From Psammoneis japonica (Eukaryota): a DNA stretch of 64,000 nt. The stretch covers positions 62,001 to 126,000 of the forward strand of contig QPGO01000028.1 in NCBI GenBank assembly GCA_008632985.1, in the 5' to 3' direction. This document shows positions 7,250 to 59,500 of the stretch, piece by piece. The notes under the pieces are model-generated. The model had not been told where the DNA came from. It did not search any database and saw nothing but the letters and a program-made list of their open reading frames with translations. How positions within the stretch are numbered: position 1 is the stretch's first letter; each line of letters opens with the position of its first letter. Position numbers and translations under genes: made by a program.

Positions 7250-10200
7250 GTTTTGGCGATGGCTTGTGTGGTTGAAGCCGTTGCAACCATCCATCAGAAT
7301 GGCATGGATGCGGCAGATGTGGCACTTCCATTGGGTCATGATGGATGCAAGACCTCCACTGGTTTGTGATGGTTGAGAGCTTGTGCCAGCAGAGCCACCA
7401 AGACGGGGGCAGAGCACCACCAGCCGCACAAGAAGAAAGAAGATGAGACGCAGCAGAGACACGCTGCCTCCCACACTGCGTTGTGCAGTGGTTGCTCAAG
7501 TTTAAGACTTGAGCCACTTGCCATGCCAAGCCCCACACAATCAAACCATCATGAGATTTTCTGCAGGAATTCCATGATGTCTGCAGTCTTCTTGCTCTTG
7601 GGGCACATTGTCTTTTCGCCTTCAGCAGCTCTTGAGCATGTTGTGAAAAAGCCACAAGCCATCACAATTTCTGTTTGATCATGCTGAAACTTCTCATTCA
7701 GAGCCCTTTTGGGCCACCAATGACATCAAACAGCACAGCAACACAGTGTTGTCACTTTGAGAAGCTGCGAGCTGCTTGAATTTTGACTGCAAGATCTGCT
7801 GAGATGACAAAACAAGAAAGTGTTGTTTTCACATCTCTGCCACATCCTTGCTTTTTCATGTGATGTTGGCCAGCACAACAGAGAAGTTTTCCTGGGTTTT
7901 CCTTGAAATGACAAGCTCACATTTTGTCTCATGCTTCATGTTGTTGCCCACTTCATTGAGAAGAGTGTCGCCACCACATCTTCAATTGTGGCACAGGGAG
8001 GGCATGTTGCTGCAGTTGCAAACAGCACATCTGTTGGGAGGTCAATCTGCGTGTCATTGCACATCAGCACTTGCATGCACAAAAGATGTGTGCAACTGGA
8101 AAGAGCAACCAATCTGTCATTGTTGTGGCCACTTTTCTGGCTGGCTGGCCAGGCATCTCTTGACCCCTTTCTGCCACAACATCTGGGTGTGGCGGCAACA
8201 AGCGGCAAAAGGCAGCAGCTTTTGGCACTCACTCCTCCACTGTGACACCGGAACTTGACAAAGCAACATTGGTTCTCCTCACACAAATGGCGTGCATGCA
8301 CAAAAACCTGGTTTGTGGGGCCACACTGCTGCCAGCACACCGCAGCTGACCAAACTTTTTTCCTTCTCCATCCACCACCACTGGCTGCTGGTGGTGCCCA
8401 TCACCAAGCACAAGCTTGCTCTGAGCTGCAAAGGGCCAAAGCTGCATGCAATGCCTCATCATGGTGGGCAGTGCACTGGCTGCTCAGTCTGCTTGGTTGC
8501 TGCACAGCATGCTGCTGCTTTGTTGTTCTTTTGCACTGCTGCCCCATGCTGCCAGCTTTTCTCATCCCCCTTGCTGGAGTCACAGCAGTGCTCACAAGCT
8601 CACCAGGTGCCAGGTGCAAGAGCTCTTACATGGGAGGGCAGATCAGACAAAAAGATGGAACAGGAGTGGAGGTGTTGTTGGCCAAAGAATGGCGCTGGCC
8701 TTTCTTGGCAATGGCAGTGGCAAGATTTGCACTTTCAAATGGGGGGTCAGCAACAAGGTGTCATTGATCAGCAATGTGAGTGTTTTGCTCATGCTCTCAG
8801 TCCAGGTCTTCTTGAAAGTTGGAGAAAAATTTTCCACTGAAGCTTCCAGTGGGTGTTGACTTCCAACAATGATCCAATCAAATTTCATTGTCTTCTCAGG
8901 ATGACAGTGCAAATTGAAGTGCAGCTTTCATGCCTGCAATCACCTTCTGTGTGCAAATTGACAATGCAGTGGTTTTCATGAATCAGCGGAGTCATTTGTT
9001 TCTTGTCACATCTCAAAAGAAAGAGTGCTGCGTTCCAGACTTTTCATCCTCTTCCTGACAATCCTTTTGCCTGAGCATCATCATTGATGTGTGCAAATCC
9101 CCTCACCTCCATTGGCCATTGTTGGTCCCACTGCACCTCCCATTTCTTCATGTCACCAGCCCCAATCTGCCATTGCTTCCAAAATGTGAGCAAACATGAA
9201 GTCATTCTACAAAAGGCAAACTGAGTCAATGTGCTCACTGTGGCAACTTTTTCAACAAATGTGTTGAGCTCGAAACTGCACACACCAACCTTGCTCATAG
9301 ATTCATCCTCAACAGCTGTCATTTGACAGACAAGCTCCACATCAAATCTGCAGGCTTCATCACAAGGCAGCATTTTTCAGTCGGGATCTGTTTTTGGTCT
9401 AACTCTGGATTTCAATGGCAGACATTTGCTCACAGCAAGATTGTGCTTGTGATCACATGGCAGTCTGCTCTGTGTTGAACTGTCTGTGTCTCCATCATGT
9501 CCACAAGTGTGGTCAATCCCTCCCTTGAATTGTTGGAGCTGTGAGTGCTTCCCATTCATTGCCCTTGCCATCACTGTCAGAGTTGACATTCCACCCATTT
9601 TTTGCTCCCCCAGCTGTCACCTTGAGATGCTTCACAAGCGTTTCTCAAGTGCTGCCCACATCCAATCCGGCTGCATCAAGCTTCCTGTGCATCACAGCAA
9701 CACTCATCTTTGCCGCCACATTGTCCTTGATGTCTGCCTGGTCAAAGGCCCCAGACTGAAACTCTGCTGTCATCAACTCCCTCAGATGTCTGGGCAAATC
9801 AAGGTCCTTGAAAGCTTTGGTCCTTGCCACTTCTTCCTTGTTGGACACAAAGTGGTTGAGAGCAGCTTCCTTGAGCTGGGCACAATTTCTGCTGTCTGTG
9901 TGGAGAAGCACACTTGTGACATTGTCGTTTGTGATTGAGGAATCTGCCAGCTTGGCTTCAAGTTGAAGCTTGAGGGCAGCACAACAAAACTTTTGTTGGC
10001 AAGATCAAGAAGGGAGATTTTGTGTCTTTTGCCCATGTCAATGTCCTCAGGAAGCTCATCAAGACAAACATGCTTCAGGAAAGACAAAATGACTGAACTT
10101 TCAACCTCATCAATCATGATGGTCTTCTTTTCTTTGTTCGATTCACACTGAAATGTTTTCGCAAAACCCGGGGCCTGCATGGCAAGAATTGATTTGTGTG

Positions 10201-12450
10201 TCTGAAAAGCTTTGTCACCAAGAACAGCAAGGGCATTGTCCCAGAAGTCTCTTGACTCAAACAACTTTTTCATGTCCTTCATGAAGGTGCCAGTGGGACA
10301 CCAAGTGATTTTCCTGCTGAGACCAATTGGAAGCCTTTGTGGTGAGTGCTCCATCATTTGGGCGACCTTCAAAAGCATCAAGCACCTTGGATTGTTTCAC
10401 AATCCACAGCGGCAAGGTCAAGCTGTTAGCTCTGACAGTCACATTTGGCTTTGATGGAACAAGACCATTTTCCCCTGCTTGCAACATGCACTTCATGTCA
10501 ACTTTTCCAAGCACATGATCCAGCTCAAGAGCAGTCACATGCACTGCATGCAATTTGATCCCCATTTCCTTCCACACTGGAGGCCTCATCTCAGTGTAGA
10601 AACAGCTTCACCTGAAAAACTCACAACCATGGCAAGAAAGCAATGGGGAGAGGATGCACTCTCCTTGGCACAAATGGTGTGCATGGGGGAGAATGTCTTT
10701 TTGCATCCAACGTCAACAGACACAGCGATTTGTTCTTCTCTTGCCATGGTGAAAATCCAATCATTGACACATGATTGTGATGTGGTGGTGCTGCAGCAGG
10801 TTTTCTGTCATGAGGAAGCACCCCTGAGCAGGGGGGCAGCATGTCATCCATGCAAAGGTGCAAAGGTTTGTGCACACATGGAATTGGGCATGCTGTCCCA
10901 TGCAAAATGTCAGCCCAAATCATGCACGAAACCCCAGCATGACACGCTGCATGACGACAACCCCGTGATGGGCCAAAAACATGATTCATCCACAGCTTGC
11001 TCCAAACTTCTCTCTTTCCTCTTGCTGTGAAGCTCCAGTGAAGACCCCAAGGGGCACCAGCATGTGTGCAGTTCCAACCGAGGTTGATGTGGTTGCACAG
11101 CATTCTTGTCTTTGTGCATGGCCACAAAAGGCAGCAACAGCACGGCAGTGACCATGCAGCAGCTTGCATTGCAGATTGCACCAGAAATGATGCTTTGGGT
11201 GTGTGATGTCATTGGAGTTGCTGCTGGCAGCAGAAGATGAAGTGAAAAGCAAAAACAGTTGCTGTGCTTGGACCAGCAATGAGCTGGGGAGGAGCAGGGG
11301 TGCTGCCGGCAACTTTTTTGCATGAGCTCTGCAAAGCTGCCAACAACTGCCAAGTTTCTTTGTCAGCTGTTTGACAAAAAAAGCTGTCTGGTGTTCAACA
11401 AGAGACAAACAGGGCTCAACAAGAGCCCCCAGTTGGAAAATGTCATTGCCCCAGCAGCAAAGAGCCTCTTTTTGCATTTGTCATTTCTCATTGACCAGCA
11501 GCTCTTGCTCACCCCAACAAATGGCAACTTTGTTTTGCAGCATCAAAAACTGGGCAAGAAGCTCCCAGTGTGCATCCTGTGTTGACCCTTCACACATGAT
11601 GTGACACATGCATGATGGCTGGTCACCGCGTGCTTGTCATGAGCCATGCTTTCAATGCACGTGCTCACATGTCATCAGCTGCCTCTGTGGACAGCCAACA
11701 GATGCACAACAGTGGCATTGCTGCACTGTTGCCACAGGTGTTTGCTGTGGCCCTCTCTCAGTTGTTGCCCATGCGGTGCTCCAGCTCCAGTTGGGACACT
11801 TCTGGACACCTTTGAAAGGGCACTTGTTGCTTCTTGAAGAACTGGCCACTCAATTTCAAAAATTTCAACAAAGGAAATTGTGCCAGTGCACAAACAGTGA
11901 TGCCATCATTTGTGGTCTGTCAAAACTTTTTTCAATTTTTTGAAATTCAAAAAACTGGCTCAATGACAAGATGTCTCAAAAAATGCCTCAAATCACTCGA
12001 CTTCACTTCACCTGGCTGGGAGAGCTGGAGCACACTCCCCTTCTCCCCTGCCAAAGCCACAGTGCTTGCAAGCTCACCTCTGGCCAGGCAGCAGTCCCAT
12101 GCTGTGTGGAAGAAGTCACCCTCTCTGTCCTGGCCAGCTTCTCTCTGGGGAAGGGGGTGCTGCACTGGGGCGAGAGCAGAGCAGAGCAGATGACCATCGT
12201 GGACACAGAGGGTGTCTGGCATCCAAAGAGAGCTTTTCTTGGTCTTCTCGCTGTGAGCTCTCTCTTGTCCGGAGCACTCACTCAGAGGAGTTGCAGCCAA
12301 GCCGTTCACGATTGTCTTGACTGACCAAACACACATGACCCGAGAAAATTCCTGAGACTTTGTCAATGCGCTTGGAGCGAGCCGAACAAAGCAAGCTGGG
12401 CGGGCGAAAAGATCATTTGGCAATTTCGATCAGTCCATGTAAAAGATTCC
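7250..12450. other. TpA-depleted (and CpG-depleted) degenerate block 1
   Basis: TA is nearly absent and TG/CA is in excess, with many overlapping Cys/His-rich spurious ORFs. Contains a decayed MATH-BTB copy. Edges are approximate. Confidence 0.85.
9580..10590 (-). pseudogene. Heavily decayed MATH-BTB paralogue
   Basis: Frameshifted fragments match the intact copies: FQTHKSILAMQAPGFAKTFQCES, LKHVCLDELP, DSRNCAQLKEAALNHF and MHRKLDAAGLDVGST. Confidence 0.85.
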
Positions 12451-12683
12451 TCTAGGTGGCACTTTTCTACAGGACAGGTAATTTCAACTGATCCTCGCAC
12501 GACTAAAAAAGGAATTTGGAAAGCAATGTATCTTCAAGCAAAAAGAACAAATAACGGGAAAGAACTTTCCGTGCTAGTGCCTCATCTGCTCGATTTGCTG
12601 ATCTGAGAAGAGACGTTGAAAGCATCAGACCACGGCTAGAGTCTGTGCTGTGGGATTGTAAAACCATTGCGTACTTCTTCATC

Positions 12684-19975: not shown

Positions 19976-21199
19976 ATGGCGCAACAGCAGCAAGAACAAA
20001 TCGTAGATTCTGCAGTCTACGAGCTGTCGCCAAAGCACACCATCAGTTTCAGCATCAAAGATTTTGAAAATCTCTCACATGAACGTGGAGAGGACATTGT
20101 CTCGCCGGAACTTTCTTGCCATGGACATTTGTGGACAATCGCAGTGTATCCCCGTGGAAGCCCGCGTTCCAGCGAAAGCACAGTTCACGTCTCTGTCGTT
20201 TTGACACGTGAAAACATGCAGGACAATGAAACTGTGAAAGCAAAATTTTCATTTCGGGTAGGAAACAAGACGCGGTCGACAGAGATCGAGAGAGATTTTG
20301 TCAGTGAGTCGCTTGGGTGGGGGTGGACGGACTTTGTCGAGCGGAGCACTGTACTCGATCCTGCCGAGGGATATCTCGAGAATGGAGTTCTCACTGTCAA
20401 GGCTGACATTCAGATTGTACTTGTCGTCAAGCCTGAGATTTGGCGCCCCAGAGGCACGCTCCAAAAGGACGTCAAGGAGTTGTTTGAATCTATGGATTTC
20501 TCGGATGTTACCTTTTCTGTTGGCGGCCATAGCTTTCAGGCTCACAAGAACATTCTCGCCATGCGTGCTTCAGGACTTGCTGAAACATTCCAGTGTGAAT
20601 CTGGAAAAGACAAGGGTGAGGCCATTGTGATTGATGGATTTGATCCTTCGGTATTTCAGGCTTTTCTGCATCACGCGTACCTTGATGAGCTTCCCGGGGA
20701 TGCCGACACGTGCAAGGATGTCACGGCTCTTCTTGATCTTGCCGACAAGTTTGGTTGCACCAGTCTCAAGCTTTGCGCGGAAGCCAAGCTTGCAGAATCC
20801 TTTGTTTCAGATGACAACGTGATTGACATGATTCTAGATGCAGACAGCAAGAACTGTCCGTTGCTCAAGGAAGCTGCGCTCAAGTTTTTCGTTGACAACA
20901 AGGAGAAACTGATGAGGACCGAGGCTTTCCGCTCTATTGAATCACCCAGATTGCTCCAAGAGTTGATTGCAGCTGACTTTCAGGTTAGGGCCAATGACCA
21001 AGGAGCCAGTGTGGAAAACATGGGCGTTTCTACTCTTCGTAGGAAGCTTGATGAAGCCGGACACGACGTGGACGGCACTCGAGAAACGCTCGTAAAGCGT
21101 CTTAAAACGGCAGCGAATGCCGAGGGCGTGAAGGAATTGTCGGAAGAAAACTCCGACAGTGATGAAGAAAACTCCGACAGTGATGATGGAGATGAATAG
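19976..21199 (+). CDS. MATH-BTB/POZ (SPOP-like) protein, copy A
   Basis: MATH motifs (CHGHLWTIAVYPRG, GWGWTDFV, GVLTVKADI) and BTB motifs (FSDVTFSVGGHSFQAHKNILAMRA, LLDLADKFG), then LRRKLDEAGHDVDGTRETLVKRL and an acidic tail. Confidence 0.9.
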   Translation: MAQQQQEQIVDSAVYELSPKHTISFSIKDFENLSHERGEDIVSPELSCHGHLWTIAVYPRGSPRSSESTVHVSVVLTRENMQDNETVKAKFSFRVGNKTRSTEIERDFVSESLGWGWTDFVERSTVLDPAEGYLENGVLTVKADIQIVLVVKPEIWRPRGTLQKDVKELFESMDFSDVTFSVGGHSFQAHKNILAMRASGLAETFQCESGKDKGEAIVIDGFDPSVFQAFLHHAYLDELPGDADTCKDVTALLDLADKFGCTSLKLCAEAKLAESFVSDDNVIDMILDADSKNCPLLKEAALKFFVDNKEKLMRTEAFRSIESPRLLQELIAADFQVRANDQGASVENMGVSTLRRKLDEAGHDVDGTRETLVKRLKTAANAEGVKELSEENSDSDEENSDSDDGDE

Positions 21200-21414: not shown

Positions 21415-22030
21415 CGAATCCATTTGGCAGTAAAGGGGTCTTGTCTTTCAAATACACGTCAAGCGCCCAGGTTTTCCGGGAGTGTGTGAATGTGTTGAAT
21501 AACGCGGAACGACTCGTCATTTTGCAGCTCTCCCCAAATCGTGTGCTGCGGTCCCCACCAAGTAGCCGGCTTTTCGTGCCAGACAAAAAAAATGAAATTA
21601 GAAAGACCCATGGCATAAACTCACTTTCAGACCTGTCAAGAAAGCTGACAAGGTTGCAACTTACGCATTGACAAAAAAGTCGCGACCACCACCACTGCTT
21701 CTGGTTTTCTCTTGTGGCACTCTCCAGAGGTCGCTTCAGCCGCTGCTGCACACAAAATCCAATGCATTCGTGTGTGCATTGAATTGTCTGTTCTCAAATC
21801 AATTTGGGAGCAAAAGGGATCTTTTCTTGTAAATGCTTCAAGCGCCCTGGTTTTGCTGGAAGTGTGTGTGTGTGTGTGCGTTGAACAATGCAAAACAACT
21901 TCTTGTTTTGCAGCTCTCCCCAAACCGTGTGCTGTGGTCCCCATCAAGCAGCCGGCTTTTCGTGCCAGAAAGAAAATTGAGAAGAAGACCTTTGGTGTAA
22001 ACTTGCTTTTTTAGGCTGGTCAAGAAAGCC
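21415..22030 (-). pseudogene. Two tandem remnants of the cyclophilin-like intron and exon 2
   Basis: Reverse-complement matches to 25590-25844 (KPATWWGPQHTIWGELQNDESF) at about 21415-21690 and 21785-22030. Confidence 0.8.
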
Positions 22031-38742: not shown

Positions 38743-38754
38743 CCCCCCCCCCCC

Positions 38755-38797
<43 letters not shown>
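38743..38797. repeat. Poly-C plus (CT)n microsatellite
   Basis: Seen directly in the sequence. Confidence 0.95.
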
Positions 38798-38801
<4 letters not shown>

Positions 38802-42166: not shown

Positions 42167-42299
42167 GGTGAAGTCGTCTTTATTCTCGCGCTGTCGTAGC
42201 GACACATAGATTTTGGAATTTTGATGCGAAGTTTTTGCGAGGCGAGGCAGTGTGGATGGACGGACGGACGGACGGTGAGAATGTCAGCACAAGCACATG

Positions 42300-45200
42300 T
42301 GCCTGAAGCGTAAAGAAAAAGAGCTTTCGTGTCCGTCCTCCACATCCGCAAAAAGGACCACGACGCATCGACATGGCTCCTGTCCATTTCTGTTTGATGG
42401 AAGGACATCATCTGGAAGTAAACACATTGCTGCTTTCTCATGCACTTTTGAGCGTGACATTGCAGAGCACCGTTGGTGTGTCAAGGGAGAGAAAAAGGGA
42501 GCTCGGTGCGGAGATCCCCGTGTTTGCGCACAAAGGTGATGCTCCCACCAAGATGCAAACTCTGCAGTCTCAGTGTGAGGTGGTTGAATCTTTTTGCCAA
42601 GAGCTTTTAACAACTGATCACAATGAGTGGCAATGGCTGCACTTGCCACATCACCAGCCACCAGGGTGAGAGCGCTCCCCTTTTCTCTCTTTCGTTTCGC
42701 CCAGTTGAGGCACTGAGCCTCATTGCGCAAAGTCTGTCATGTTGTTGTCTGAACAAGTGGCTTCAATGTCAGATCAATCATTTGCAACATGAGTGCAAAG
42801 GTCACAAATGTTTGAGATTTCAAGTTTTTCAGCTGCGAACGCAATGTGCTCCATCAACAGCCACAAACTCACCATGAAACTGATGCTGCACTGTGTGTCA
42901 ACAGCACATGATTCACTTCATGTGCACATGCCTTGCTGTGCTTTGACATTGACTGGTCACAGCAAAACAGCTAAAATGTTCAATTTTTCACCCATCGCTT
43001 TTCTCACACAAGTCAACAATGAGCCCGCTGCACTGTCACGTGTCAACTCTGCTTCACACAAGTTCACAAGATGCAAAATTGTGTTGATTTTTGCAACTCT
43101 TGAAGGTGACACCATTGAGAAAACAGCAACTGCAGAGTTGCTGTGATGTGGTGATTTCTGCTGTTCCTTCTGCAGCACACCAGGGCCGCCAACAGCAAAT
43201 TCGCAGTGCTTGAGCTGAGTCTGGGCAGTGCTTGTTGAGCAGGCATGTGGCTGCCTTTTTGCACATCATGTGATCACCATTCTCAGTCATGGGGCTGCCA
43301 GAAAAAAGGGATGTTTGGCAAAAAAAAAACTCAGCTTCTCTGCCTCCTCCAGGCACCAACCCCAGCACCTCCCAATCTTCTCTGACTCCCACCTTGTTCG
43401 CCCCCTGAACTGCCTCCCAACTGGCCACATTCTCTGCCCCCATTAATCTGCAGTCTTCACATGCTCAGCACAGGGCACGTTTGGACATGCCAAGTGCCCA
43501 TTGCAAAGTTGTCTTCTGAGAGCAGCTGAAAATGTCATCATTGTTGTCATCATCGAACAACAATTTGTTGTGCAAATTGCAGTCAATTGCATGGCCGTTG
43601 TCTGTCCAACATTGCGCTTCTGTGTGCAACTCATGCACACACCTTGAATGTTCTTTTTTTTGCTGGCGGCAAGCCTGATGATGTTCACTCATGCACATTG
43701 ACGTGTGTTGCATTTGGCAATCAACACTGGTGCATTGTTCATTCATTTCATTCAAACAACTGAAAAATGCACACATTGTGGGAGTGTTGTCAAATGTGTG
43801 GAACCTGCGCTCAATTGTGTGCCTTCAGACACAAATGTTTGACACCTCAAATTTCCATGACTTGTCAAATCGCGATGACAATGGCAACCACAAATGCAAT
43901 GCACTCCATCAATGGCCATGAACTCACCATGACACACTGACACATGTCAACAGCTCACAATCCATTTCACATGTGTGTGCCTTGCTGTGCTTTGAAATTG
44001 ATCGATTGCATTAAAAACAGCTGAAAAATTCAATTTTTTGCCCTCCACTTTTTAACTGCACAAGTCGACAACAAGCCCGTTGCACTCACTCTCACACCTC
44101 AATTCTGCCGCACACAAGTTGATGAGATGTGACACAATGTTCATTGTTGTGGCTCTTCAAGGTGATGCCATTGAGAAATTGGCAGCTGCAGAGTCACCAT
44201 GGTGAGGTGGTTTCTGCTGTTTCCAGCTGTGGCACACCAATGGCAAATTCTTGCACTGCACTGAAACTGAGTCATGCTTGTTGAGTTTGTGAGGCTGCCA
44301 CTTTGCACATCATGTGCCCGCCATTCTTGGTGGTGGGGCCGGCAGAAAAAAAATGTGGTGATTCGGCAGAAAAAAATGACAACTCAGTGAGTGACCTGAC
44401 AACTTGCTGTTGGATTTGGAGGACAAGAGCCATCCAGAGAAAACAGCAGGCAATTGCACATTGATGCATTTGATCAGATGGGGCAGCTGACATTCACAAC
44501 CTGGCCAGCAAGCTGCTCCAATCAACAAAAAATCTGTGTGCAACCTGGCCATTCCAACAGCACCAACAACAATGTTGGCAATGCAGTGCAGTGCAGTGCG
44601 ATTCAATTCAATGCTGCATGATGCAATGTGACACAATGTGATGTGATGAATTTCAACACCAGCTGCTCCAACAGCACCAATCTGTTTCATCATTTGACCC
44701 ACATTTTCTGCCCTCTGTTTTGTTGTCTGATCTACATTCTGCCCTCTGGTCACATCATTCAGCAGTTGTTGCATTTTCAAAAAGTGGCTGCATTTTCAAA
44801 ACATGCCAGCCAAACAAAGAACAAATGAACCACAAAAGAAATGTTGGGATTTGGGTTTGAGGCCAATGCCTGCCCTGGGATCAGCCCCTTTGCTCTCATT
44901 GGCTGTCTCAATGTTCAGAGGTGGAGGGGAGCCACTGGCATCCCAGGCCTCATGAGCACCATTGCAGAAGAAAAAAACTGCTGAGGCACTGCTGTGGACA
45001 GCAACCTCTGCAGTTGCACAGTTTTTTAGAGATGATGGCAATCTCATCTGCCACTTTCTGGCAGACTTTCCCAAAAGTGGTGGGCTGCAGGATGCCAGAA
45101 AAAGCAGCAGATTGTGGGTTGCCATGAGCAATTCAGCAGCACTGCCTTGCACCATGTCCCATGCCATGTGCAATGTGACCCCAGCAGTTGCTCAAAAGTC

Positions 45201-47150
45201 TGTCAGCAAGCACAACTCATCTGTCATGAACAACAATGGATGTTTCTAATGCCACAAGCTTCAGTGCCATTCAATCTGAGAGAACAAAAAAATTGAAAAA
45301 TGACAGCTGCACAAGAAACAAGTGCCCCGACAACTGCAAAAAGATGCAGAAAGAGGTGCTGTCCACATTTTGACTTGTGCTTGCCACTCTTTTCATGGAT
45401 GTGTTCTCCAGAGAAAAACACAGCATGCCATGCATTGGTGTTGTTGCAGGAATGCCTTTGACAGCAACAGCTGGCATCTGCTGCAGCAAGGTGACAATGC
45501 CACATCAACCACAACATGGCAGGGTTTGTTGTTTGTCTTCTTCTAGGCTTTCAGGTCACCTGGCAGCTTTTTGACAGACCTCTCATGTTTTTCACCACCA
45601 GACTTTTGTTCTTCACACTGCCAGCACTCTTTGCAGCCAGCCATCTTGCCCAGCAGGCTGCAATGACAAAAGCATGCTGCTCAGCTTTTGCCAGCAGGTG
45701 AGCTGTGCAGCTTGTGTGTCCAAGGCTGAAAGAGAGCAAAAGATCAAGAAGAGCACCCCTTTTCTTTTCAGCCAGAGCTGCAAGTGGCATGATGCACACA
45801 TCGCCAAGCAGCAATGCTGCCAGTTTTTGGCAGGTTTCTCTGCGCACACTTGGCAGCAGCTGTGGTGCTTGCCATTGAGGCAGCAGCTGGTCTCTGAGTT
45901 GGCGCACTTTGCCACAAAATGCTTGGTTGCCCAAGCTGCACACCAACTTTGCACATGCCATGCATGTGGGGGTTTCTCCATCCATGAACAAATGGCCCTG
46001 CTGTGAGCTCATCTTGGGACTCACTCTCAACATGACTTTGGGGGCAACAGAAAAAAGGTGCTCCACTCATCATTTTGTGTTGTGACATGCTGCTTGTGAC
46101 AGCACCAGAGGCTTGTGTGTGACAGACAGTGAAAAGGCCACCGGGGTTTTCCTGCCAGGAGTGATCTTCTCTTGTTTTCCTTGTGGCATGTTTGAAACCT
46201 CCAGTTTGTCTCAAGGCAAATCTTGCCACACTTTGGCCACAGTTGTTGTCATGGCTTGTTTTTTGCTGTGCTTTGTGACAACAACATTTTTCCTCAGAGC
46301 ACAAGAAGAAGCAAAAGCTGCAACAAGCTGGGCTGGAGAGAGGAAGAGAGAGAGAAAAAATGGCAGCTGCCAAGCCACTGTGCTTGTTGGAGCTTGTCAC
46401 ATCATTTGTGCAGTTGTTTGTCATTGCCATTGTCTGAGTTTGGCAGGAGAATGCCACCCATTTGATTGTGGCTCTTGTTGTTAATTGCCCAACCACCAAA
46501 ACAATTGTTGTGCACAACGCCATGTGCTGCTCTGGAGATGGTGCATCTGCTGAGTGCAAAACAAGGTCATGGCACCAATCTTGTAAAAAATCAAAGAAGG
46601 CTCAAAGTGCACTCCCGCTTTTCCAGCAACATTGTGCCAAGTGCTGCTCAGACTGGCTGCACTGTTGCCCACTTTGGTCAGCCAACAGAGTCAACACACT
46701 TGCATCTCACTCCATTGAGATGGTTGCTCATGTTTGCTGTGCAGAGACTGTCACTTCATGGTGCCGAGAGGATGCCATGTGCTGTGCTGCAGTTGGCAGA
46801 GCAAGAGATCTCCCAGCGCAAGCACTGTGAAAAAAAAACTCCCCAGCCAGCTGCCAAAGTTGTGCCTTTGAGCCACCCTCAGACCTTTTTTGACGGCCCG
46901 AGAAGAGCTGGGAATTCAAAGCTTGTGCACACATTTGTGCATCTGTTTGGCAAACAAAGACAGCAGCTTGATGGTTGGAAGACAGGAGCTGGCTGGAGAA
47001 CATTGGCTTTTGTTGACAACTCCAAGGAAGGTTTGGCCAAAGCAAAATCATGAACTTTGCACATGCTCTTTACAAACAGGGCAGTGTCCCAGCCCCATTG
47101 GACTTAAATTGTGAAGTGTGCGAATTCGACTTTTTCATGCAAGCAAAGAA
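42300..47150. other. TpA-depleted degenerate block 5, with an internal diverged duplication (~42865-43330 vs ~43920-44350)
   Basis: TA is nearly absent. The string aactcaccatga...gccttgctgtgctttga...aaaacagct...gagttg...cacatcatgtg recurs about 1.05 kb apart. Confidence 0.8.
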
Positions 47151-47410
47151 GCATGGGTTGCTGGAAAGACTCCACAAAATCATTCAGACTGGGTGGCACT
47201 CGTGTGCGTCGGTTAGAATGGGCGCTCGTGCTTAGCAAACGATTATACGATCACGGTTGTTGGAAACCCCTGCATTGGTTCGAAGGCTGGCCTTTGGCCG
47301 GGAGAGATGGATTCTCGTGGAAAAATGCTTTGAACAGGCATGTGCAGAATGAGAACGAATTTCGATTGTTCAGGAGAGACATTGACAGCTATATGGCCAG
47401 TGTATCGTAA
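46200..47410 (+). pseudogene. Probable host gene with a decayed 5' part and a normal 3' end
   Basis: The normal-composition 3' frame ...RLYDHGCWKPLHWFEGWP...DIDSYMASVS* grades upstream into TA-free frameshifted sequence that has a TM-like segment near 46230-46300. Confidence 0.45.
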
Positions 47411-47450
47411 ACAGCATTTTAACAACTTCACGGTTCATTTTTTGTCCAGC

Positions 47451-48701: not shown

Positions 48702-50295
48702 TGTTGTTTCTACTTATGGATGCAACCTGAATGGCTTTGTCAACAGAACAAAGGCGACTTTTTTCGTTTTATGCGTTTGAGTTTGAAAAAGACTTTTTGC
48801 AAAGCTTTGGCAGCTCGGCATTCCCAATGTAGGGAGGGTTTGGTATAAATGGGTTGACCCTGCATGATGGATGGATGCGGTGAAATGAAACTGTTGACCT
48901 TCTGCAGAACCCACGCATCATGCGGCGCTGTAGGTAAATAAATTTGGAAATCCAAAATTGCACTGCGTGAAATTTCGGACAGTGCGTACAGACGCGGGCG
49001 CGACACGCACACACGACGCGACACACGTACACGTGTGACGCGTGACGCACCACAGGGACAATGGAGCAAGCTCCGACCATGACATGGTGTGCAAACGGTG
49101 ACGAATACTTCGTGCCCATTTGATGCCCCATCCCGAAACAAAATCCGTGGACATCATCCATGGCTGCAGCAGCTTCCTGTCTGAGCAAGTCTCCTCGTGA
49201 TTGCTTTCACAAGATGGGCGAAATTTTTGGCTGTGGTGCAAGATCAACAAATCAGAGCCATCAAAAGTGTCAAGTGGCAGCAGTGGCAGCAGGATCCAAG
49301 GTCCATCATCGACTGCCACAACAAACAAAACAAAGAATGCAGCACTGAGGCAAGGTCATCTTTTTGCTAAAGAAACAAGCAAGTCAGGCTGCTGCTGCTC
49401 CCAAGCAAACTCCTGCAACAGGGGGAGGATCTGTGCGTCGTTGTGGGTGTCGATGCAAAGAATCGCATCATTGTTGCCCGATTCTTCTTCAAGACATCAT
49501 GGAGAACCAAATGGAATCACTGCTTCAACAAAAGAAACATTGCAACACAACAAAGCCAACAAAAAACTGGAAGAACGCACTGTGCTCCAAGAGGCTGAGA
49601 TTTGGTTTCATGATGAGAACGGGTGCACACCCACAATGAAGAGCACATGATGCAAAGCAATTGTCGAGGGGAGAGATTTGTCAATCTCGGTGGAATGTTC
49701 CATCTTTGCCAAAATGGCCACTTGGTGCATTTCTTTCATGGGGTGCAACTCCTCGTGACAAAAACAAGAGAAGCTCTGCTGCACTTGGGACGAATCTGCA
49801 ATTCCTGCTGCTGCCACTCTGAACACTGCTGCCACTGTTGGCAGAGCTTCACTTGGCAATCGCTCCACAATTGCAGCTGAACAACTGCCACTACACACAG
49901 CATGTGATTGGCATTTGCACATCTCAATTGTTGGGCAAAAGTCAGTGATTTGACAACCCCCCGAACACCAGCCCAGTTTCTGCTGAGTCGCATGCGCTGC
50001 ACGCCAAATTCTTTGACACCCCCGAACACCAAAACAAGCACATGGGCTGAGTCCTGGCTCCTTGGGGAACCAGCTGAATTGGTGAATGATTTTGGCAATG
50101 GATTGAACACCACAAAGGCCAACACTGTGGATCACTTGCCAGCTCAATGAGGGCCAATGGGTGTCATGTGATTGATGCAGTCGCGTGCAAACAAGGGGAG
50201 GTTTTTGTGCACTTTTTCATCATCTGTGGGCGCAACACTCAAATTGGATCTGGTGCTGTGTGGGCAACCTCAAGCAGTGACAGTTTGTTGGGGCT

Positions 50296-50484
50296 TGCAA
50301 GATCCAGCTTGAGATGACTTGACACAAAACAGGTTTTGAGAGAACCAAGAAGGGGGAGCCGATCACCGCAATTGCTGATCGGAGCTGACTTCTGACAGCC
50401 TCTTGAACATCTGATGCATTGGTTGATGTGCACATGTCAGAGGGGGCACACTCGGTCATGGAGTGCATGTGCCCATGTCACTCA
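50296..50484 (-). repeat. 3' LTR (hypermutated)
   Basis: Aligns to the 5' LTR once the MITE is removed; contains no TA. Confidence 0.9.
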
Positions 50485-50599
50485 CTCTTCCCCTCCATGG
50501 TGCAAGAATCATGTGCACCATTGGAACCACTTGACTCAAATTTAAACTCCAATGCGCACGGAGAAGGGAACCCAGATGTTGGGAAGAAACCCTCAACTC

Positions 50600-53500
50600 T
50601 GATGCGGCACATGCTTGCAGCACCGAAACTGTCCCACTGGCGTGGACTTGTGCAATTTGAAACTGACCGCGAGCTTGAGCTTCGAGCTTTGCTGGATCCA
50701 CAGACTTGATTGACACATCTTTTCCCACAAGATAATTGCAAGAATGACGCTTTGCGTTCTGTCGTCACAGGTTTTTGTTGATGAGCACTTGACGGTTGGC
50801 TTGAATGGCAGCAAGATTGGAGAGAACAGAGATGGATCCAAAATCACATCATGTTGGAATGCCAAAGCTCCACTTGAGACACCCATGGACCTTGAATGAG
50901 AGCATCGTAATGCAAAAGAGGCTGTGGCAAGGGCATCATCCATGATCTGCTTGGCCTGTTGAATGTTCAAAGGTGGGTCAGCAGCAACCACAGTTTGCAA
51001 AATGTTGGCCACTGTTTGGTGCATTTGTTCACAAATGGAGTTGGCTGCAGGACTCCGTGAGGTCATTGGAGCATCTTCGACACCGGCCTGGTTCAATGTC
51101 ACCTGAAATTCCCAACCAATGAATTCACCACCGTCATCATGGATGCATCGATTTGGTCTGGGACAATGAGCCAACCAGAGGTTGCGGAACTTGTTGGTGA
51201 TGTGTTGAGAAGTTTTGTTGTCAATGCGCACAAGTTCAGTCAGGCCAGTGACAGTGTCAACACAAGTGAGGGCACTGAATTCAATCTCTTGATCTTGAAT
51301 CGGCATTTTCCATGGCCCAATGAGATCAACTGCCACTTCCGACCATGGAGCTGATGGTGCTTGGTGTTCAGGCAATTCTCCATGTCCCGGACCAAGTTGT
51401 TTGAAGTGTTGACAGGTGTCACACACAAGCTCATTACAATGCCAATGCAATGCAGGATGACACATGTGAGTGCAAATGCTCTTGTACAAACAAACAACTC
51501 CACAATGGTCCAATGCACGATGATGCCATGTGAGCATGTCAGGCAACAATGCAGTCGGAGTGCAAATTTTCCATGCTCCAGGCAGATCATTCAAGTGCAA
51601 ATGACAACACATGATGGGATGATGGTTCACAATCTTGACCACGAATTGCTGCGGGTTCTGTTGTCTCTGCTGATTCAGTTGCTGGTCCTCAAACTGGAGC
51701 TGTTGCATCCGTGACATCTTGGTGGGACTCGGCATTTTGTTCAATGTCAGACATTTTAAAAAGCATTCAAACAGCTCAGGCTCATCAAGCAGAGAAGAAA
51801 AGGTGTGAGACTCATCAGAGGGATCAACAGGAGCATGGCAACACTTGAACCTGCAAGTGCCCAACTCCAATTCTTCTTCTTCCTTGGCCTTGCTCAATTC
51901 ACTGCTGTTTTCAACTTTTCAAAATGAATGATTTTTCCTTTGCCTTTGCCACTTGGCCCAAGGCTCTTCCCCTCCAAAGGCAGACCCACATGTGGAAGAC
52001 AAGAAAAACAATTGGTGAGCATGTTGTCAGATGCCAGCAAAGGACATGCTGTGCATTCAAGGTGCAAAAGGTGAGATTTTTATGGTCAGTGTGAACAGCA
52101 ATGTTGGCACCACTGAGCAACATTGTGCGAAATTCTTTGAAGCACATGACAACAGCAAGGAGTTCCTTCTCCATGGTTGAACAGTTGTGTTGAGCTGCTG
52201 AGAGCTTTTTGGACCAATGTGCTGCTGGTTTGCCATCTTGGGTGATGGCTGTGCCCATCTGGCAGTCGGATGCATTGGTGCAAACATGGAATGGTGGGTT
52301 GTGGTTGGGACAGGCCATCAGAGCTTCCACCGCAATCACTGCTTTTATTTTCTTCAAATGCTTTCTGACACACATCTGACCAATGGAACTGGCTCTTGCC
52401 TGTCAACTCCCTGACGACGAGGCCACATGTTGCAACAACAGGTCACTGCACCAAGAAATGAGCAAAGTTGCATGGCATTCCGTGGAGGCTGCATCCAGGG
52501 AACAGCTTCAACCTTTTTCTTCCACGGTTTGACGCCAGTTGGAGTGAGCCAATGCCCCAGGAAATCCATCTCTTGGACACACCACTTGCGTTTTAATGGG
52601 TTGACTTTCAATCCATTCTCCTCAAGATGATGCAACACCTTGTCAAGATGAGAGAGATGACAATCAAAGTCAGCATCAAATGCGCCAATGTCATCGACAC
52701 AAGTTTCAACATCCAAACCATGTGTGATTTTCTCAATGACAGACTGAGCAATGTCTGGAGCTGGCTTCAATCTCACGGCCATGTGGCAGTGTTGGAACTT
52801 TCCGCAGGGAGTTGCAATTGCAGCCAGCTCCTTGCTTTTGTCGTCCAATTTCAAGTTGCAGTGGAACATGGTGAGATCAAGTTTCGTAAAGAATTTGAAG
52901 CCCGCCATTCACTGTGGCACATCTTGGACAACCGGCAAGGGATGGACTTTCTGCTTGAGCACCTCGTTTGGTTCACAGAAGTCAGACACCCATCGCACTT
53001 GCCCGTCCTTCTTTGGAGTGATGAAAGCACCGGCTGCCCATTCTGCAGGTCCACATGGTCGCAAGACTCCCAGGTCCACCAAATGCTTCAGCTCCTTTTT
53101 GAATGCTTCTTCATCAACTCGAGCAACAGGAAAAGGTTTTGAGTGACAGGGTGCAGCATTTTCTTCCACCTCCAGGTGTGCCTTTTCATGAGGACAGTGA
53201 CCCAAAGTTCCGTCAAACAAGGTTGAGCATTTCTCCAACACCACTGGCAGCTTCATCTTTTGCTCTTCTGTCAGGTGATCCAGGTTGCAAACCACTTCCG
53301 CAGGATCCATTGCTTTGCACTTGGCATCCAGCATGTGGCCATCACACCCATCATCATGTCCACAGTCTGATTTGTCCTTGCAGTCTTCATCAAATTCATC
53401 CATCTGATCTAGAGCAACATGCCAGTTGCAGGGTTTTGATGATGAGGCTCCTTCATTGGAATTGTGTGGTCCAGCCAATGCAGAGTTCTTGCATCGCAGT

Positions 53501-53900
53501 TCAAGTGGAGTCCAATCTTGTCCAAGAAATCTCAACCCAAAATGACATCATGCGCACATGGAGCACAAAAAACATGAGCGACACAACCGTCAACCCTCCA
53601 AGTCTCTTGTCGAATTCTGGCAGCACAGTGTGTCACTCAGAGCTGCCCAACGACCCGATTGGAAAGGACCTGCTGTGGATTGAAAAGCTTGCACTCCATG
53701 TTCATCAATGGATGGCACGGCCCCACGAGGTGAAACTTGAGAAGAGATCACAGTGTGAGAGCCACCAGAATCAAACAGCACACGCATCTCATGATTCAAT
53801 TCATGACATTGGACTGATTTGGCAACAAGCAGTGTTGATGGGACCAATGCGGTGCATGAAACTTGCAAACCCATTTTGGGGAGAGGAACATCACATTCAA
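50600..53900 (-). pseudogene. Gypsy pol (protease, RT, RNase H, integrase), frameshifted
   Basis: RVLFDSGGSHT (PR); FITPKKDGQVRWVSDF, TKLDL and ETCVDD (RT); FHVCTNASDCQMG and EKELLAVV (RH); WSEVAVDLIGPW, IHDDGGEF and PAANSICE (IN). Confidence 0.92.
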
Positions 53901-55679
53901 GTGCATCTTGATCAAATGCGTCCCCCTCTTCATTCGTGCAATTTTCTGCAGTGTCTTCAAATTCAACAGGAGACAATTCATCAGGATTTTCAAAACAATC
54001 AAAGGCAAAACTTCCAGGCACATTTTCAGGAACAATGCACTCATTTTCAACAAATGCTTCACATGTGGGCAATTGGGGGCATTCAGCTCCTTCTTCTCAG
54101 AACTGCCAAGGAAACTGCCCATCTGGCTGAAACCTCACCACACCTCCACAACGTGGAGGGCCTCGCCCGATCATGTCGAAATGGCGCACATCACCATGAG
54201 GAGCTTCTTGAGCCTGATTGTCATTCACATCATCTGCTTGAGCAGCACAACGGTTGGCCTGACCTTGGCCACCACGATTGTCATTGTTGCTGCAACAATG
54301 CTGGCCACCACCACCTTGGTTGCCGCTGTTGTTCTGATTTCCATTGTTGTTGTTGTTGTTGCAATTGTTGCAGCAGGTGCCACACCCTCCTTGGTTTTGG
54401 TTGCCATGACCACCAAAGCGTCCACCACCACCACGGCCAGGACCACAGCCTCCTTGGAAGCAACCTCCACCCCTCGACCTCCACCGCCACGACCACCACC
54501 TCGACCGCCATGGTTTTGAGGTCCACGACAGTTGGGGTCATTTGGATCATCACAACACTGACCCCATGCATGTCTTCTATAATGCCACGAGACCAGACAT
54601 GGGTCACTGGCCTTCGGTTGACCCTTGCCATCCTTCTTGTCACGGTTGCCCTTCTTGTTGCTGGTGGTGGAGCTCCCTCCATTGCCATTGTTGGACTTGC
54701 GTTTCTTTTCTTGTTGTCCTGGCCATTGGCAAATGCCTTCTCATTCCACCATGGAATCTGGGACAAGATTCTTGCCCGCACGAATGTGGGGCTGCTGCCA
54801 GGTCAAAGGAAAGGTCGTGCAGAAGATGACATTTTTCTGCTCTTGCTCTGTGAGTTCAGGAACGGTTCCAGGCAAGCGGTCAGCATGACAAAATGGGGTT
54901 TCCATGCAATCAACATGAGTTTCAGATTCCGTGGAGTGAGGTTTCTTGCAAGCAGGCAAGCGCATCTTCTTCGCATCCTGAGCTGTCGGCTTCACACAAT
55001 GTGGACAGTGGGCCGAAATGGCTTGATTAAACCGAGCTGCCATCCTCTGATTCTGTTGGATGCCCGCTGTGATGTTCTGCCATTTTGCCTCCACAGCACC
55101 TTGTGGGCAATTCTCAACAGCATCAAAAAGTTATGTTCCGGCATCACAATCCAACTGTCTTGCCACCTTCTGAAAGCGCTCCTCCACGTGCAACAGTGGC
55201 TCAATTCCGCGTTCTCCTGCAAAAACAGGATGCATTTTTGAGAGTTTAGTTCTGTCATCAAAGGTTTGAGCAAGTTTCACTTCTTGCAATTCAGAGTCCA
55301 CAAATTTGGTTTTATGCTCAGTGCATGCTTTCTCCAAAGCTTCTTGATGCATGACGATGAACAATTTCAGCGATCAAAGAATCAACAGCCCACACAATGA
55401 ACGAAACAACGTGCTCCCAATTGATCCACACAACGAGAACAATCAACAACCAAACAACAACAAATTCAAGTGCAGCAATGTGGGACTTGAGTTCAAACAA
55501 ACGCTGCTCTGAATCGCCCCAATTTCACGAGCACAATTGTGCTGAGGCTCCGATTGATTTCCAACAAAATTTTCTGCACGAGCACCCAGACAAGCTTTCT
55601 CTCTTTTTGACAGCACTCTGTGCATTGTCATGAAATGGACAACGCAACAAGCAAGCTACAACAATGACTGTAATTACAG

Positions 55680-56533: not shown

Positions 56534-59500
56534 ATGTCACAACCATTGAAAAAAAGGCGTCGGAAAGTGCATGGCAAATCTTCTCCGTCAAACAGGGTCA
56601 CAGTCGATTGTGAGCTCGATGCACTTCATTTGACCATTAAGTCATGTACAGCTTGTGAGAATCAGATCTGTGCATGCATGGAAAGCTTTGTTGAGCTGGG
56701 TTGTGCTGGAAAATGTGCTCTTTGTGTCTCTTGCTGCGCCCGCTCCGTCGCGTTGAGAGGTTGTGACGTGACGTTGCACTGCTCGGTGTGCAGCAGTGAA
56801 ACAACTGACTTTGCCATGCATTCTGTTCATTTTGAGCAAGGACATGGTGGTGTCAAACCTGTTCAACAATCCTGTGCTGGTGCAGTCACTCCTCCGAATG
56901 CCAAGATGGATCCGGTTCGTCATTTCATGAGCAACAAGGAAACACCGGACCAACTCTTCGGAGGCAACGTCCATGTTACGTCATCAAGGATTCAAGATTA
57001 CGCCTCATTGACATTTGCTGGACACAAAGAGGATGGCGACATTGCTGTTGCATCAACTGTTCTTCCCACTTGCTCGCAGGAAGATTGGACGAGCGAAATG
57101 AAAGCATCGATTGAGAAAATCTTCAAGGTGTTTCACTCCATCCTCGTCACCCTTTGCCCGACAAAAAAATTTGATCCGCTGGAGATGTCGAATCGCTCAA
57201 CTTTGACAAACCTTGCCCACAATCAGAAATTTGTTCTGCTCAGATGTCTTCATGCCCTTGGGCATGGAGAAATCTTGGACGACAACATTCCCGCGGAGCA
57301 GGTTCTCAACCAGTCGAAAGCCTGGGACAAGCACTTGAAATGTGTCTTTGCTGCTGCTGACATGCCACTGCACCTTGGGAATGAACATGCAGGCGTCACA
57401 AAAACAATGGTTGGGAAGCAGCTGCTTGCGCAAGCAGCCCCAAGCACCGTCCACTCCGTTTTGAACAATTGTGGGATGGCACCCGCTAGAAGCACCGAGA
57501 ACAAGGGAATGCATGACCGAGTGCAACAACTCATCAAAGATGGAATTGATTTTGTGCACTTTTCAAAGCACTGCCACTTGACTGTGCATTTTGACAACCT
57601 TGGGCACAAGAGTCGTGGTGAAAATGTGGGACACAAACAGTCCATTCTCCGTGTTGTTGTAGAGACTTTGGTTGACGAGTTGAAGAAACACAGGATCTAT
57701 GACAAAGACAACCCACTCAGTCGGAGCAGTGAGACCTGGTCTCAGGAGATTCTGAAACCAGACTTTCCTGGTGCAAAAGAAATTGCGACGCCATCGGCAA
57801 AAGCGGCAGACCGTGTCGGCCAAGAATTGCTCCGTTTGCTGGAACATATGGTCAAATTGGAGAGTGACAGACAATTCGTGTCTCATGAAGAGGCAGAGAC
57901 CATTGTTTGGCTTCTAAAGAAGAGGACGGCCCATCGGGTGGAGGCAACCAAGCGCCAACGGCAGAAGACGACAACGAGAAAAGAACGTTGCTGGACATTA
58001 ACCTTGGAATCGAAGACCTGCCACTTCAGTTGGACTTGTCAACGGCTCATGCAAATGAGTTGCTTCTGTTGCACTCTATTTTTGTTCAAGAGCTGATCCT
58101 TGCCAATGGAAAGGATGATTCCGAAATTGCAAGTTGGGGGGGAGAGCCAACAATGAAACACGTGTCCATCACGAATGCATGTGATGGCGATCCCGCCATT
58201 GTCATGAACAATTTGAAGCGACAAAAAGCCAAGTTTGCGAACTGTTTTATTGCACCGCAGGGCTTCCACCTAGAGATGAAAAGCTTGAAACTTGATGGCC
58301 TGCTGTTGGGTCCGTGCCTCGTTGAGGAATTTTTTATGCTGCTTGGCCGCGACACTCCGGGCAAACTCAATTGGGCACTGAATCCCGGCGACCCGCGTCA
58401 AGCTGAAGAAGGACATGAGGCAATTCTCCATGCAATCTTTATAGACGCGACACGAGGCTGTGTTGAAACTCAAGCAGACGATTCTGATTCTGTGGAAGTT
58501 AGCCCCGTCGATGTGTTGGACCACATTCTTGGACGAGCTTTGAAGTGTCCAGCAATTCTTCGTTTGCTGGTGCATCTTCAATTAATTGTGACATTTTTTG
58601 TGCTGCAGCATGCCGAGAAGAATGCAGATGCGGAGGACTGTGAACTAGGTCTGAGGTTGATGGCAGTCTTTGCTTCAGCAGGACATGCAATTGGGTGCGT
58701 CTCTCTGACAGCCGACCAAATTCGCGATTTCTACTGTCACAGTGAAGCTCAGAAGAAAATGTGGATGCTGTCACTCTTCCGCAAAACTGTGAATGGCAAG
58801 AACCAGTGTGGAGACCGCTTTTTTGAGAACATTGTTGGTCATGCCAGATTACATTCGGGCAAGCATGTGTACAGCAACGATGACGCTAAGCACTGCAAAC
58901 GGATTCGCGAAGTCGCTGTGGAATCTAATAAAAATCAAAGCTGCAGGAAAATCAACAATGCTGCAGCAGCAGTCACTGGCCAAGAGGGTCCTCGTCAAAT
59001 GAAAGTGAATAAGTGGTTCTGCGAGTTATTGCTGTATCTACGAGATGTCAATTACTTTGGCAATGGTGCTCCGCGCGTCATCCCCGCCAAGCCATTTTCG
59101 AAACGTGGTCCGGTGTCAAGCTACCGTGAAGTTGAAGAACTAGACCTTGTTGGACCATCCGGGAGATCTGGTGATCCTCAGAGCTGCTTCATATTGTCCA
59201 CCGGGGAAAAGCGATTCGTTGAATACTTTGAAAAATTTATTGTAGATGGAGATCCATCTGATTGCTCTCGACCCGAGACGGGTGAAGAAGGAGTGGATCT
59301 TTCATTGATCCCACCAGAAGCGGACAAGAAGGACACCGCATTACAGGACGAGCTGAAACGATGCTGTTCCGAAGACTACAGCTTTCTGATGACTAGGGGT
59401 GTATACACTGTCCCAGAACTCGACAAGGAGCTTGCACATGTGAAAGGTGAAATAGAGTCCGAAAGATGGAAAGCAATCATGGCGGCGTACCCAAAACCGA

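Follow-up and report, generated by a model that had tools for sequence, protein, structure and literature searches.

The closest described counterpart of the pattern reported here comes from the chlorarachniophyte Bigelowiella natans, in which giant-virus and virophage DNA is integrated. Our analysis concerns 64,000 nucleotides from the diatom Psammoneis japonica (GenBank assembly GCA_008632985.1, contig QPGO01000028.1, positions 62,001 to 126,000 of the forward strand; hereafter the window, with positions counted from its first letter), in which multi-kilobase blocks have lost nearly all TpA dinucleotides (TA) and are enriched in TpG and CpA. In mutation-accumulation lines of B. natans, two integrated viral regions accounted for 231 of the 302 nuclear mutations, and 230 of these 231 were A-to-G or T-to-C changes, all of them on TpA according to the preprint; the rate is about 6e-7 per site per generation, raised about 1000-fold, and the genome holds 124 TpA-poor, CpA+TpG-rich clusters that are enriched in transposable element (TE) domains (Mettrop et al., bioRxiv 10.64898/2026.01.13.699255; here and below, the parts of the preprint compared with our data). 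An ADAT2 homologue is proposed there as the agent, and the terms 'diatom', 'CpG', 'trinucleotide' and 'tetranucleotide' are absent from those parts.

The two cases share A-to-G/T-to-C change at TpA on both strands over kilobase-scale nuclear regions, long-term TpA depletion with gain of CpA+TpG, an enrichment of TE-type domains, and many affected genes that cannot be annotated. They differ in lineage (a rhizarian there, a diatom, i.e. a stramenopile, here) and in degree: the observed/expected ratio (o/e) of TpA is 0.45 in the nucleocytoplasmic large DNA virus (NCLDV) region of B. natans, whereas the depletion is near-saturated here (0.02-0.11). The targets are viral inserts there, but transposon remnants and host-gene copies here. 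In the window CpG is co-depleted and there is a flank rule (TTAA spared); the window holds a footprint only, whereas de novo mutations were recorded in B. natans.

Fungal repeat-induced point mutation (RIP; as seen in Neurospora and others) is likewise a defence-like transition hypermutation of a fixed dinucleotide at the DNA level, which covers kilobase tracts, ruins coding sequence and skews dinucleotide content. RIP, however, changes C to T at CpA and so makes TpA, whereas here A-to-G change at TpA destroys TpA, and CpA/TpG are gained; and RIP is homology-triggered, premeiotic and hits both copies, whereas in the window diverged duplicates are spared and one of two close copies is affected. 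Deamination of 5-methylcytosine (5mC) in methylated TEs marks silent repeats by the same loss of CpG to TpG/CpA that we find in the blocks, stronger in WCGW than in SCGS contexts (W, A or T; S, C or G); it explains the fall of CpG o/e from 1.01 to 0.32 but cannot remove TpA. Cytosine methylation of TEs is described in diatoms, and diatom DNMT4, which lies near fungal RID, has no known function in the sections of that paper used here (Hoguin et al., PMC9998398). The APOBEC3 and ADAR enzymes of animals also produce deaminase-type transitions with a fixed 5' neighbour, directed against selfish nucleic acids; but the substrate of these enzymes, during replication, is single-stranded cDNA or double-stranded RNA, and they leave strand-biased tracts, whereas resident chromosomal DNA is changed here, on both strands.

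Our literature search returned no report of TpA hypermutation in diatoms and one relevant paper, that on B. natans; the SPLASH paper (PMC9258296), in whose retrieved passages 'diatom' and 'hypermutation' co-occur, proved unrelated. An earlier note on this DNA, made from its letters alone, had known of no description in diatoms; we found none either, but the same spectrum has been measured in B. natans (bioRxiv 10.64898/2026.01.13.699255, in the parts compared), so that the phenomenon itself has by now been described.

Composition and content of the TA-poor blocks

The window was scanned in sliding 1-kb windows and segmented with two states on TA density. 1-kb windows over genes have TpA o/e of 0.44-0.78 and CpG of about 1.0, while those over blocks have TpA of 0.00-0.12, CpG of 0.04-0.5, and TpG and CpA of 1.5-2.3; G+C is about 0.48 all along. 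The segmentation gives nine TA-poor segments of 1.5-6.8 kb each, which cover 37,000 of the 64,000 bp and alternate with ordinary DNA. Pooled, they hold 124 TA (o/e 0.05), against 1,006 TA (o/e 0.53) in the 26,087 non-N bp of the ordinary remainder; the o/e values for TG and CA are 1.76 and 1.77 (1.20 and 1.22 outside), that for CpG is 0.32 (0.19-0.71 per segment; 1.01 outside), and G+C is 0.486 (0.463 outside). The TpA depletion in the window is real and far beyond chance, and the earlier note was right that TA is nearly absent and TG/CA in excess in discrete blocks, with ordinary genes in between. The seven blocks it had outlined match our segments within about 100-300 bp, with three amendments: there is an extra TA-poor segment at 26.7-28.4 kb over a MATH-BTB copy, the block at 28-40.4 kb is broken by a 400-bp unmutated island (35.5-35.9 kb), and the last block fades gradually, to an end near 58.2-59.5 kb.

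Among the 16 dinucleotides, only TA and CG collapse; beyond these and TG/CA, shifts are at most about 0.2. There is no depletion of AA and TT (o/e 1.25 and 1.23 in the segments, 1.20 and 1.18 outside). The note had played down the loss of CpG, which is substantial, though 5mC deamination does account, as it held, for the CpG part alone. C and G contents of the segments are normal, which excludes a bisulfite-like conversion chemistry. Tyr codons (TAT+TAC) fall from 22.3 per kb outside to 1.0 per kb in the segments, the destruction of Tyr codons that had been proposed, and TAA+TAG from 16.3 to 2.3 per kb; because these stops are erased, many long open frames lie in all six phases inside the blocks. 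Change of TpA to TpG/CpA never makes a stop, and spurious long frames are found on both strands of the segments (e.g. a 712 aa frame at 53103-55238 of the plus strand, antisense to the gypsy gag-pol). Such block frames have no Tyr, are enriched in Cys, His, Gln and Trp, and are a trap for gene prediction.

The segments and the features in and around them are as follows.

7201..12400: TA-poor segment 1 (TA o/e 0.02, CG 0.20), holding a degenerate MATH-BTB copy D
about 9510-10396, minus strand: degenerate MATH-BTB copy D (BTB domain, E 3.4e-08, at 9785-10396)
7153..12582: stretch of 5,430 bp skipped by one contig of a public DNA run (run X1), at about half the k-mer depth
14401..16900: TA-poor segment 2 (TA o/e 0.05, CG 0.20), without Pfam match
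19976..21196, plus strand: MATH-BTB-SAP gene copy A, of ordinary composition; the reference copy
21701..24800: TA-poor segment 3 (TA 0.06, CG 0.19); left boundary near 21600, inside a duplicated segment
26701..28400, minus strand: TA-poor segment 4 (TA 0.11, CG 0.71), over MATH-BTB copy B
26721-27917, minus strand: MATH-BTB copy B, a 399-aa open frame with 0 Tyr
28701..35500: TA-poor segment 5 (TA 0.05, CG 0.38), holding a Plavaka/KDZ-like transposase remnant
34148-35305, minus strand: open reading frame (ORF) of 386 aa, the degenerate Plavaka/KDZ-like DNA-transposase remnant
35502..35903: insert of 402 bp resembling a miniature inverted-repeat transposable element (MITE), with 27-nt terminal inverted repeats, 89% complementary (TA o/e 0.95, CG 1.55)
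35901..40500: TA-poor segment 6 (TA 0.05, CG 0.25), with internal duplicate 38215-38378 / 38473-38635
40973..42283, minus strand: MATH-BTB gene copy C, of ordinary composition, with TA-poor DNA on both flanks
42201..47200: TA-poor segment 7 (TA 0.05, CG 0.22), with internal duplicate 42838-43328 / 43893-44376
49001..55600, minus strand: TA-poor segment 8 (TA 0.05, CG 0.40), a degenerate Ty3/gypsy-type retroelement
52357-52908, 51914-52402 and 50596-51918, minus strand: reverse transcriptase, RNase H and integrase-like parts of that element
50296-50407 and 55680-55786: candidate long terminal repeats (LTRs) of the gypsy-type element, tentative
56309-56450 / 61272-61414: inverted repeats bounding a 5.1-kb unit (143 nt, 97.9% identical)
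56701..58200, plus strand: TA-poor segment 9 (TA 0.09, CG 0.70), fading out by about 59.5 kb
56516-58093 (plus), 57889-59898 (plus) and 59981-61192 (minus): orphan ORFs in the 5.1-kb unit

A Pfam search with 210 stop-to-stop frames of the window identified the reverse transcriptase, RNase H and integrase-like region of Ty3/gypsy type at 50.6-52.9 kb, a BTB/BACK remnant within block 1 and, at 19.9-21.2, 26.7-27.9 and 41.0-42.3 kb, complete MATH-BTB genes; it found no match in five of the nine TA-poor segments. The Rfam search gave 0 matches in the window. 54 relatives of the frame at 34148-35305 were collected by a full HMMER scan, and two long ones match the Plavaka family (PF18759), one of them above the Pfam cut-off; word-indexed protein searches with the block ORFs 34148-35305 and 57889-59898 gave no match. 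No viral gene was seen among the identified block contents. The Atlas clusters nearest to the MATH-BTB-SAP protein are mostly from Bacillariophyta; a further Atlas query, with the subtilase, yielded no taxon of use. Genes of the window read as long, unbroken frames and carry single introns of about 90 nt; those of B. natans are rich in introns. The two LTRs are assigned tentatively, as only a core of about 110 nt can be aligned (the 400 bp around the two candidates align poorly, at a forced 54% identity). The 5.1-kb inverted-repeat unit is TA-poor in its left 1.5-3 kb only; possibly it is a DNA transposon of recent origin on which the process has only begun to act.

Direction and context of the changes

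The direction of change can be read from the MATH-BTB copies, which we aligned (A-D) with 15 outgroup proteins. Tyr columns kept in 13-15 of the 15 outgroups and in copies A and C read His in copy B and Cys in copy D; there is no Tyr in the 399 residues of copy B, nor in the 323 of copy D. The transposase remnant tells the same: all three Tyr columns conserved in its relatives are C, C and H in the window (FHAFYKYG in relatives, FHSFCSCG here). Parsimony on copies A, B and C places A-to-G changes of the B lineage at 5 of 15 TpA sites, but at 16 of 361 adenines in other contexts (3/115 after A, 9/115 after C and 4/131 after G). 23 TA sites of copy A correspond in copy B to CA (11), TG (6), unchanged TA (3) or others (3), so 17 of the 20 changed sites are transitions; and TA and CG of copy C, as well as TA and CG of copy A, align to TG/CA in copy D. 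The earlier claim of A-to-G change at TpA on either strand thus holds, both for the conserved Tyr turned into Cys or His and for the B-lineage counts.

Copies B and C are closest relatives (86-87% identity): 15 TA of C are TG/CA in B, and the reverse is never seen. CpG changes between the two are symmetric (13:12), and copy B lost 15 of its 21 TA without an excess of CpG change. TpA loss is therefore separable from CpG decay and able to outrun it. Since A-to-G change is confined to TpA and polarised, a general GC bias or GC-biased gene conversion is refuted; the note had proposed polarised spectra as the check on its idea, naming A-to-G change equal in all contexts as the outcome that would count against it, and the spectra are TpA-specific. 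In a further comparison, of A (19961-21580) with C (42179-40571), double differences with TG in A and CA in C occur nine times and the reverse never; as A and C lie on opposite strands, the implied changes would all be on one genomic strand; the count is small.

Within the blocks, sites were changed individually, on one strand or the other. In each of the nine segments TG is about as frequent as CA, and runs tests on four polarised product sets give p values of 0.15-0.97. We considered processive single-strand events and rejected them, as there are no strand runs in the four sets.

100 TA remain in the trimmed blocks, spread throughout and not at the edges, and their flanks are far from uniform (chi-square 110, 9 df). 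Relative to background density, 49% of TTAA and 22% of CTAA/TTAG remain, but only 2% of GTAC, 1% of ATAT and 0% of ATAC/GTAT: TTAA is resistant and RTAY (R, A or G; Y, C or T) most sensitive. An additive model with four parameters (A 2.56 > G 1.85 > C 0.94 > T 0.38), which stand for the base two positions 5' of the changed adenine or for the complement of its 3' neighbour, accounts for all ten classes; because TA is palindromic, the effect is not assignable to -2 or to +1, and 44 polarised events split 10 vs 14 between the two. From the k-mer balance there is a hint of a preference for T-A-Y and an avoidance of T-A-A, but products that stem from CpG, on either strand, confound this signal. Part of the residual TA may have arisen anew and not be survivors.

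Residual CpG also depends on its flanks: the raw count ratio between TA-poor and ordinary DNA is 0.71-0.77 (about 0.5 when scaled by length) for CCGC/GCGG, CCGG and GCGC, and 0.38-0.41 (raw) for ACGA/TCGT, ACGT and TCGA. The lower residue in WCGW than in SCGS fits a faster decay of A/T-flanked CpG.

A probable region-confined mutator and its rivals

We consider it probable that the blocks record a region-confined TpA mutator of deaminase type, acting in place on silent nuclear DNA as in B. natans. On this reading, the blocks are decayed transposons and dead or dying host-gene copies, plus stretches without recognised content; site after site, and on both strands, the A of 5'-TA-3' has been replaced by G in them until TA was nearly gone, with a slower decay of CpG to TpG/CpA in the same regions. 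The sequence itself establishes a process at the DNA level that turns A into G at TpA on both strands, without runs and after duplication or insertion, in bounded kilobase regions; it spares expressed-looking genes and a young nested insert, and it depends on the flanking bases. The proposed enzyme would deaminate adenine to hypoxanthine in DNA, and is probably of ADAT2/TadA type or some other protein with the deaminase fold. It would act as a genome defence on chromatin that is silenced and probably cytosine-methylated, to which it would be recruited. A DNA adenine deaminase would be the likeliest agent, favoured because of the transition-only outcome and the strict 5' T; ADAT/TadA enzymes naturally edit A34, which comes right after the universal U33, as is argued in the preprint (bioRxiv 10.64898/2026.01.13.699255).

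The process follows regions, not repeats. In the duplicated segment at 21.3-22.1 / 25.6-26.4 kb, 13 of the 19 sites with TA in the partner are still TA up to about 21600, and 16 of 20 are converted beyond it, a switch that puts a block boundary inside a repeat at a resolution of about 100 bp. The MITE-like insert at 35.5-35.9 kb is nested in TA-poor DNA and is itself unmutated. The 960-bp pair 13225/17027 (87% identity) is ordinary, with 20 TA in common, and the duplicates of 84-87% identity outside the blocks, like the pair A/C, have ordinary composition (these spared duplicates are already diverged, and the comparison bears on their present composition). The earlier note had a region-directed mutator aimed at repeats, with every internal pair of homologues showing TA replaced by TG or CA. 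Discrete regions are indeed what we see, and replacement holds for pairs with one member in a block, but not for the gene-gene pair 13225/17027; 'repeat-targeted' is not supported, in view of the spared duplicates, the one-sided conversion of B, the boundary inside a repeat and the untouched element with terminal inverted repeats. For the same reasons, a homology-sensing repeat-induced process (RIP-like but with other chemistry, in which pairing detects duplicates and both copies are mutated at TpA) is unlikely: conversion has hit copy B but spared C, its closest relative (15 vs 0), the pairs 13225/17027 and A/C are ordinary, single-strand runs are missing, and neither the boundary nor the nested element fits, although several affected stretches are duplicates or TEs, TA is rather low even in the ordinary copies A and C (o/e 0.29-0.31), each of which is short of one Tyr kept by relatives, and diatom DNMT4 groups with fungal RID in phylogenies (PMC9998398, in the sections used).

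The hotspots of DNA polymerase eta (Pol eta) are WA, with TA favoured, and it makes many transversions at A. This Y-family polymerase, copying WA to WG in error-prone resynthesis during repair of methylated DNA (e.g. at T:G mismatches from 5mC deamination), had been named as a candidate, and the CpG decay in the TA-poor segments would indeed make mismatch-triggered repair frequent. We consider it quite unlikely: AA/TT are not depleted, with B-lineage A-to-G change at 3/115 sites after A and 5/15 after T; only three of the 20 TA sites changed from A to B are non-transitions; the loss of 15 of 21 TA from copy B without excess CpG change leaves the trigger missing; and 230 of the 231 B. natans mutations are transitions (bioRxiv 10.64898/2026.01.13.699255).

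Very improbable is an explanation without any mutational history, whether foreign elements are taken to have this composition intrinsically, TA to be selected against, or modified bases to have caused an artefact of sequencing or assembly. RNA viruses and retroelements often under-represent UpA and CpG, which counts for an intrinsic composition; but conversion from TA is evident in the copies of the host gene and at conserved Tyr positions, the TA o/e of 0.02-0.05 is about 10 times below the background here, and three environmental loci encoding relatives of the transposase all have ordinary TA (o/e 0.57-0.65), so that the depletion is not intrinsic to the element family. As to an artefact, C and G contents are normal, and 96% of the sampled words of 6500-13500 are present in the public DNA run X1. 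In block 1 (7034-11995; 4,962 bases) its contigs show 0 differences from the window, and two further contigs of 3-4 kb that span blocks have 3-4 differences; in all, block-matching contigs at depth 35-64 show 0-4 differences per 3-5 kb. A consensus or base-calling artefact is ruled out. The check on raw reads that the note had proposed comes out in its favour to the extent that contigs of run X1 support the TG/CA bases; this sole run with the stretch may, however, be the assembly's own sample.

ADAR-like A-to-I editing of double-stranded RNA transcripts, with reverse transcription and reinsertion of elements that arrive edited, is hardly credible even though one block is a retroelement and a 5' U preference of ADAR is mentioned in the preprint (bioRxiv 10.64898/2026.01.13.699255), since the DNA-transposon remnant and the host-gene copies at a tandem locus are equally affected (so an RNA intermediate is not needed), depletion ends at region boundaries and not at element ends, and decay in place largely refutes it. 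This decay is seen in duplicates inside blocks: in the 490-bp internal duplicate of segment 7, 26 of 63 double differences are TG<->CA, as against 1 of 19 in the gene-gene pair, and in that of segment 6 they are six of nine. Such an excess indicates that ancestral TA and CG decayed independently in each copy, after duplication. The within-block candidate LTR likewise has CA/TG where its block-edge partner has TA (two sites), and TG/CA where the partner has CG (three sites).

Several points weigh against a region-confined deaminase-type mutator, or narrow what can be said for it. Identified content is found in only four of the nine segments (TE genes in two, copies of the host MATH-BTB gene in two); the claim that the blocks coincide with TEs and duplicates stands for these four, and the rest are without recognised content. 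An episodic process, or one guided by sequence and not by region, could be behind the unmutated state of the nested insert and the partial effect on the 56-61 kb unit. The polarised counts are small (15 to about 45 events). If run X1 is the assembly's own sample, its agreement is not independent replication. Seven differences between run X1 and the window are listed inside blocks, and only one is TpA to TpG, so there is no sign here of ongoing activity. Cytosine methylation of the blocks is suggested only by CpG loss, and the link to silent chromatin by the co-located CpG decay and the identity of the targets.

The region-confined mutator can be carried a step further, to the broader proposal that diatoms, and hence at least two distant lineages of the stramenopile-alveolate-rhizarian (SAR) group, carry a chromatin-aimed DNA adenine-deaminase defence that wears away TpA in silenced DNA continuously, site by site and on both strands, independent of repeats and of CpG decay, with a flank rule under which RTAY goes fastest and TTAA is nearly immune. 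We put this forward tentatively, as a proposition with somewhat less than even chances.

Other features of the window, and what the finding means

One contig of run X1 joins 7152 to 12583, and depth over block 1 is 35, against 62-68 elsewhere; the half depth and the joining contig indicate that block 1 is probably on one haplotype only. We looked for terminal inverted repeats, LTRs and a target duplication at the ends of block 1 and found none; both an insertion and a deletion from the other haplotype are possible. A second run (X2) is RNA-like, with GT..AG joints on the gene's strand, and in the part of the window compared its contigs lie over gene bins only and over no TA-poor bin (the absent cover is not counted as proof that the blocks are silent).

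The stretch 17788-19779 (N run at 19605-19813) stands out by depth: summed contig depth is about 1,600-1,900 in X1 and 1,100-2,200 in X2, against about 62 elsewhere, with many variant contigs and with GT..AG joints in X2. In one X1 contig, 17991 is followed by 23 other letters and then by 19814, so one form of the locus is without this 1.8 kb. The stretch has no open frame (a spliced reading of 18.0-19.6 kb included) and no Pfam or Rfam match, and its TA o/e of 0.70 shows no hypermutation. Possible explanations are a high-copy expressed element and an assembly intrusion beside the gap.

Four copies of a small secreted-looking gene are found at 2100-2747, 13621-14598, 17422-18045 and 24982-25584. 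They share a conserved C-terminal domain ending in GGG.GPDFF(I/V)(T/N)T, and have no Pfam match. As they are interleaved with the MATH-BTB copies, the locus is one of repeated segmental duplication.

The window is best filed as a second occurrence of the kind just described in B. natans, unusually saturated and informative. To our knowledge, no cellular process that hypermutates adenine in resident chromosomal DNA was known before the 2026 B. natans preprint. A second occurrence, in a diatom, would mean that this is not one alga's curiosity, and would point to a widespread eukaryotic genome defence or at least a widespread chromatin-linked mutator; in the window it has reached saturation, affects both transposons and copies of the host gene, and takes up more than half of the 64 kb. 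It also adds details beyond the parts of the preprint compared: the separability from CpG decay, the random choice of strand, the region boundaries, the escaped nested insert and the flank rule that spares TTAA. For annotation, Tyr-free, Cys/His-rich proteins and open frames in six phases lead gene finders and homology searches astray. Transformation and editing work in several diatoms, which would make it possible to find the enzyme. If the broader proposal of a chromatin-aimed deaminase defence is true, this would be the 'A-side' counterpart of RIP and APOBEC, able to inactivate any gene without creating a stop codon, and would offer a naturally occurring, TpA-specific editor of adenine in DNA as well as a genomic clock that tells the age of silencing.

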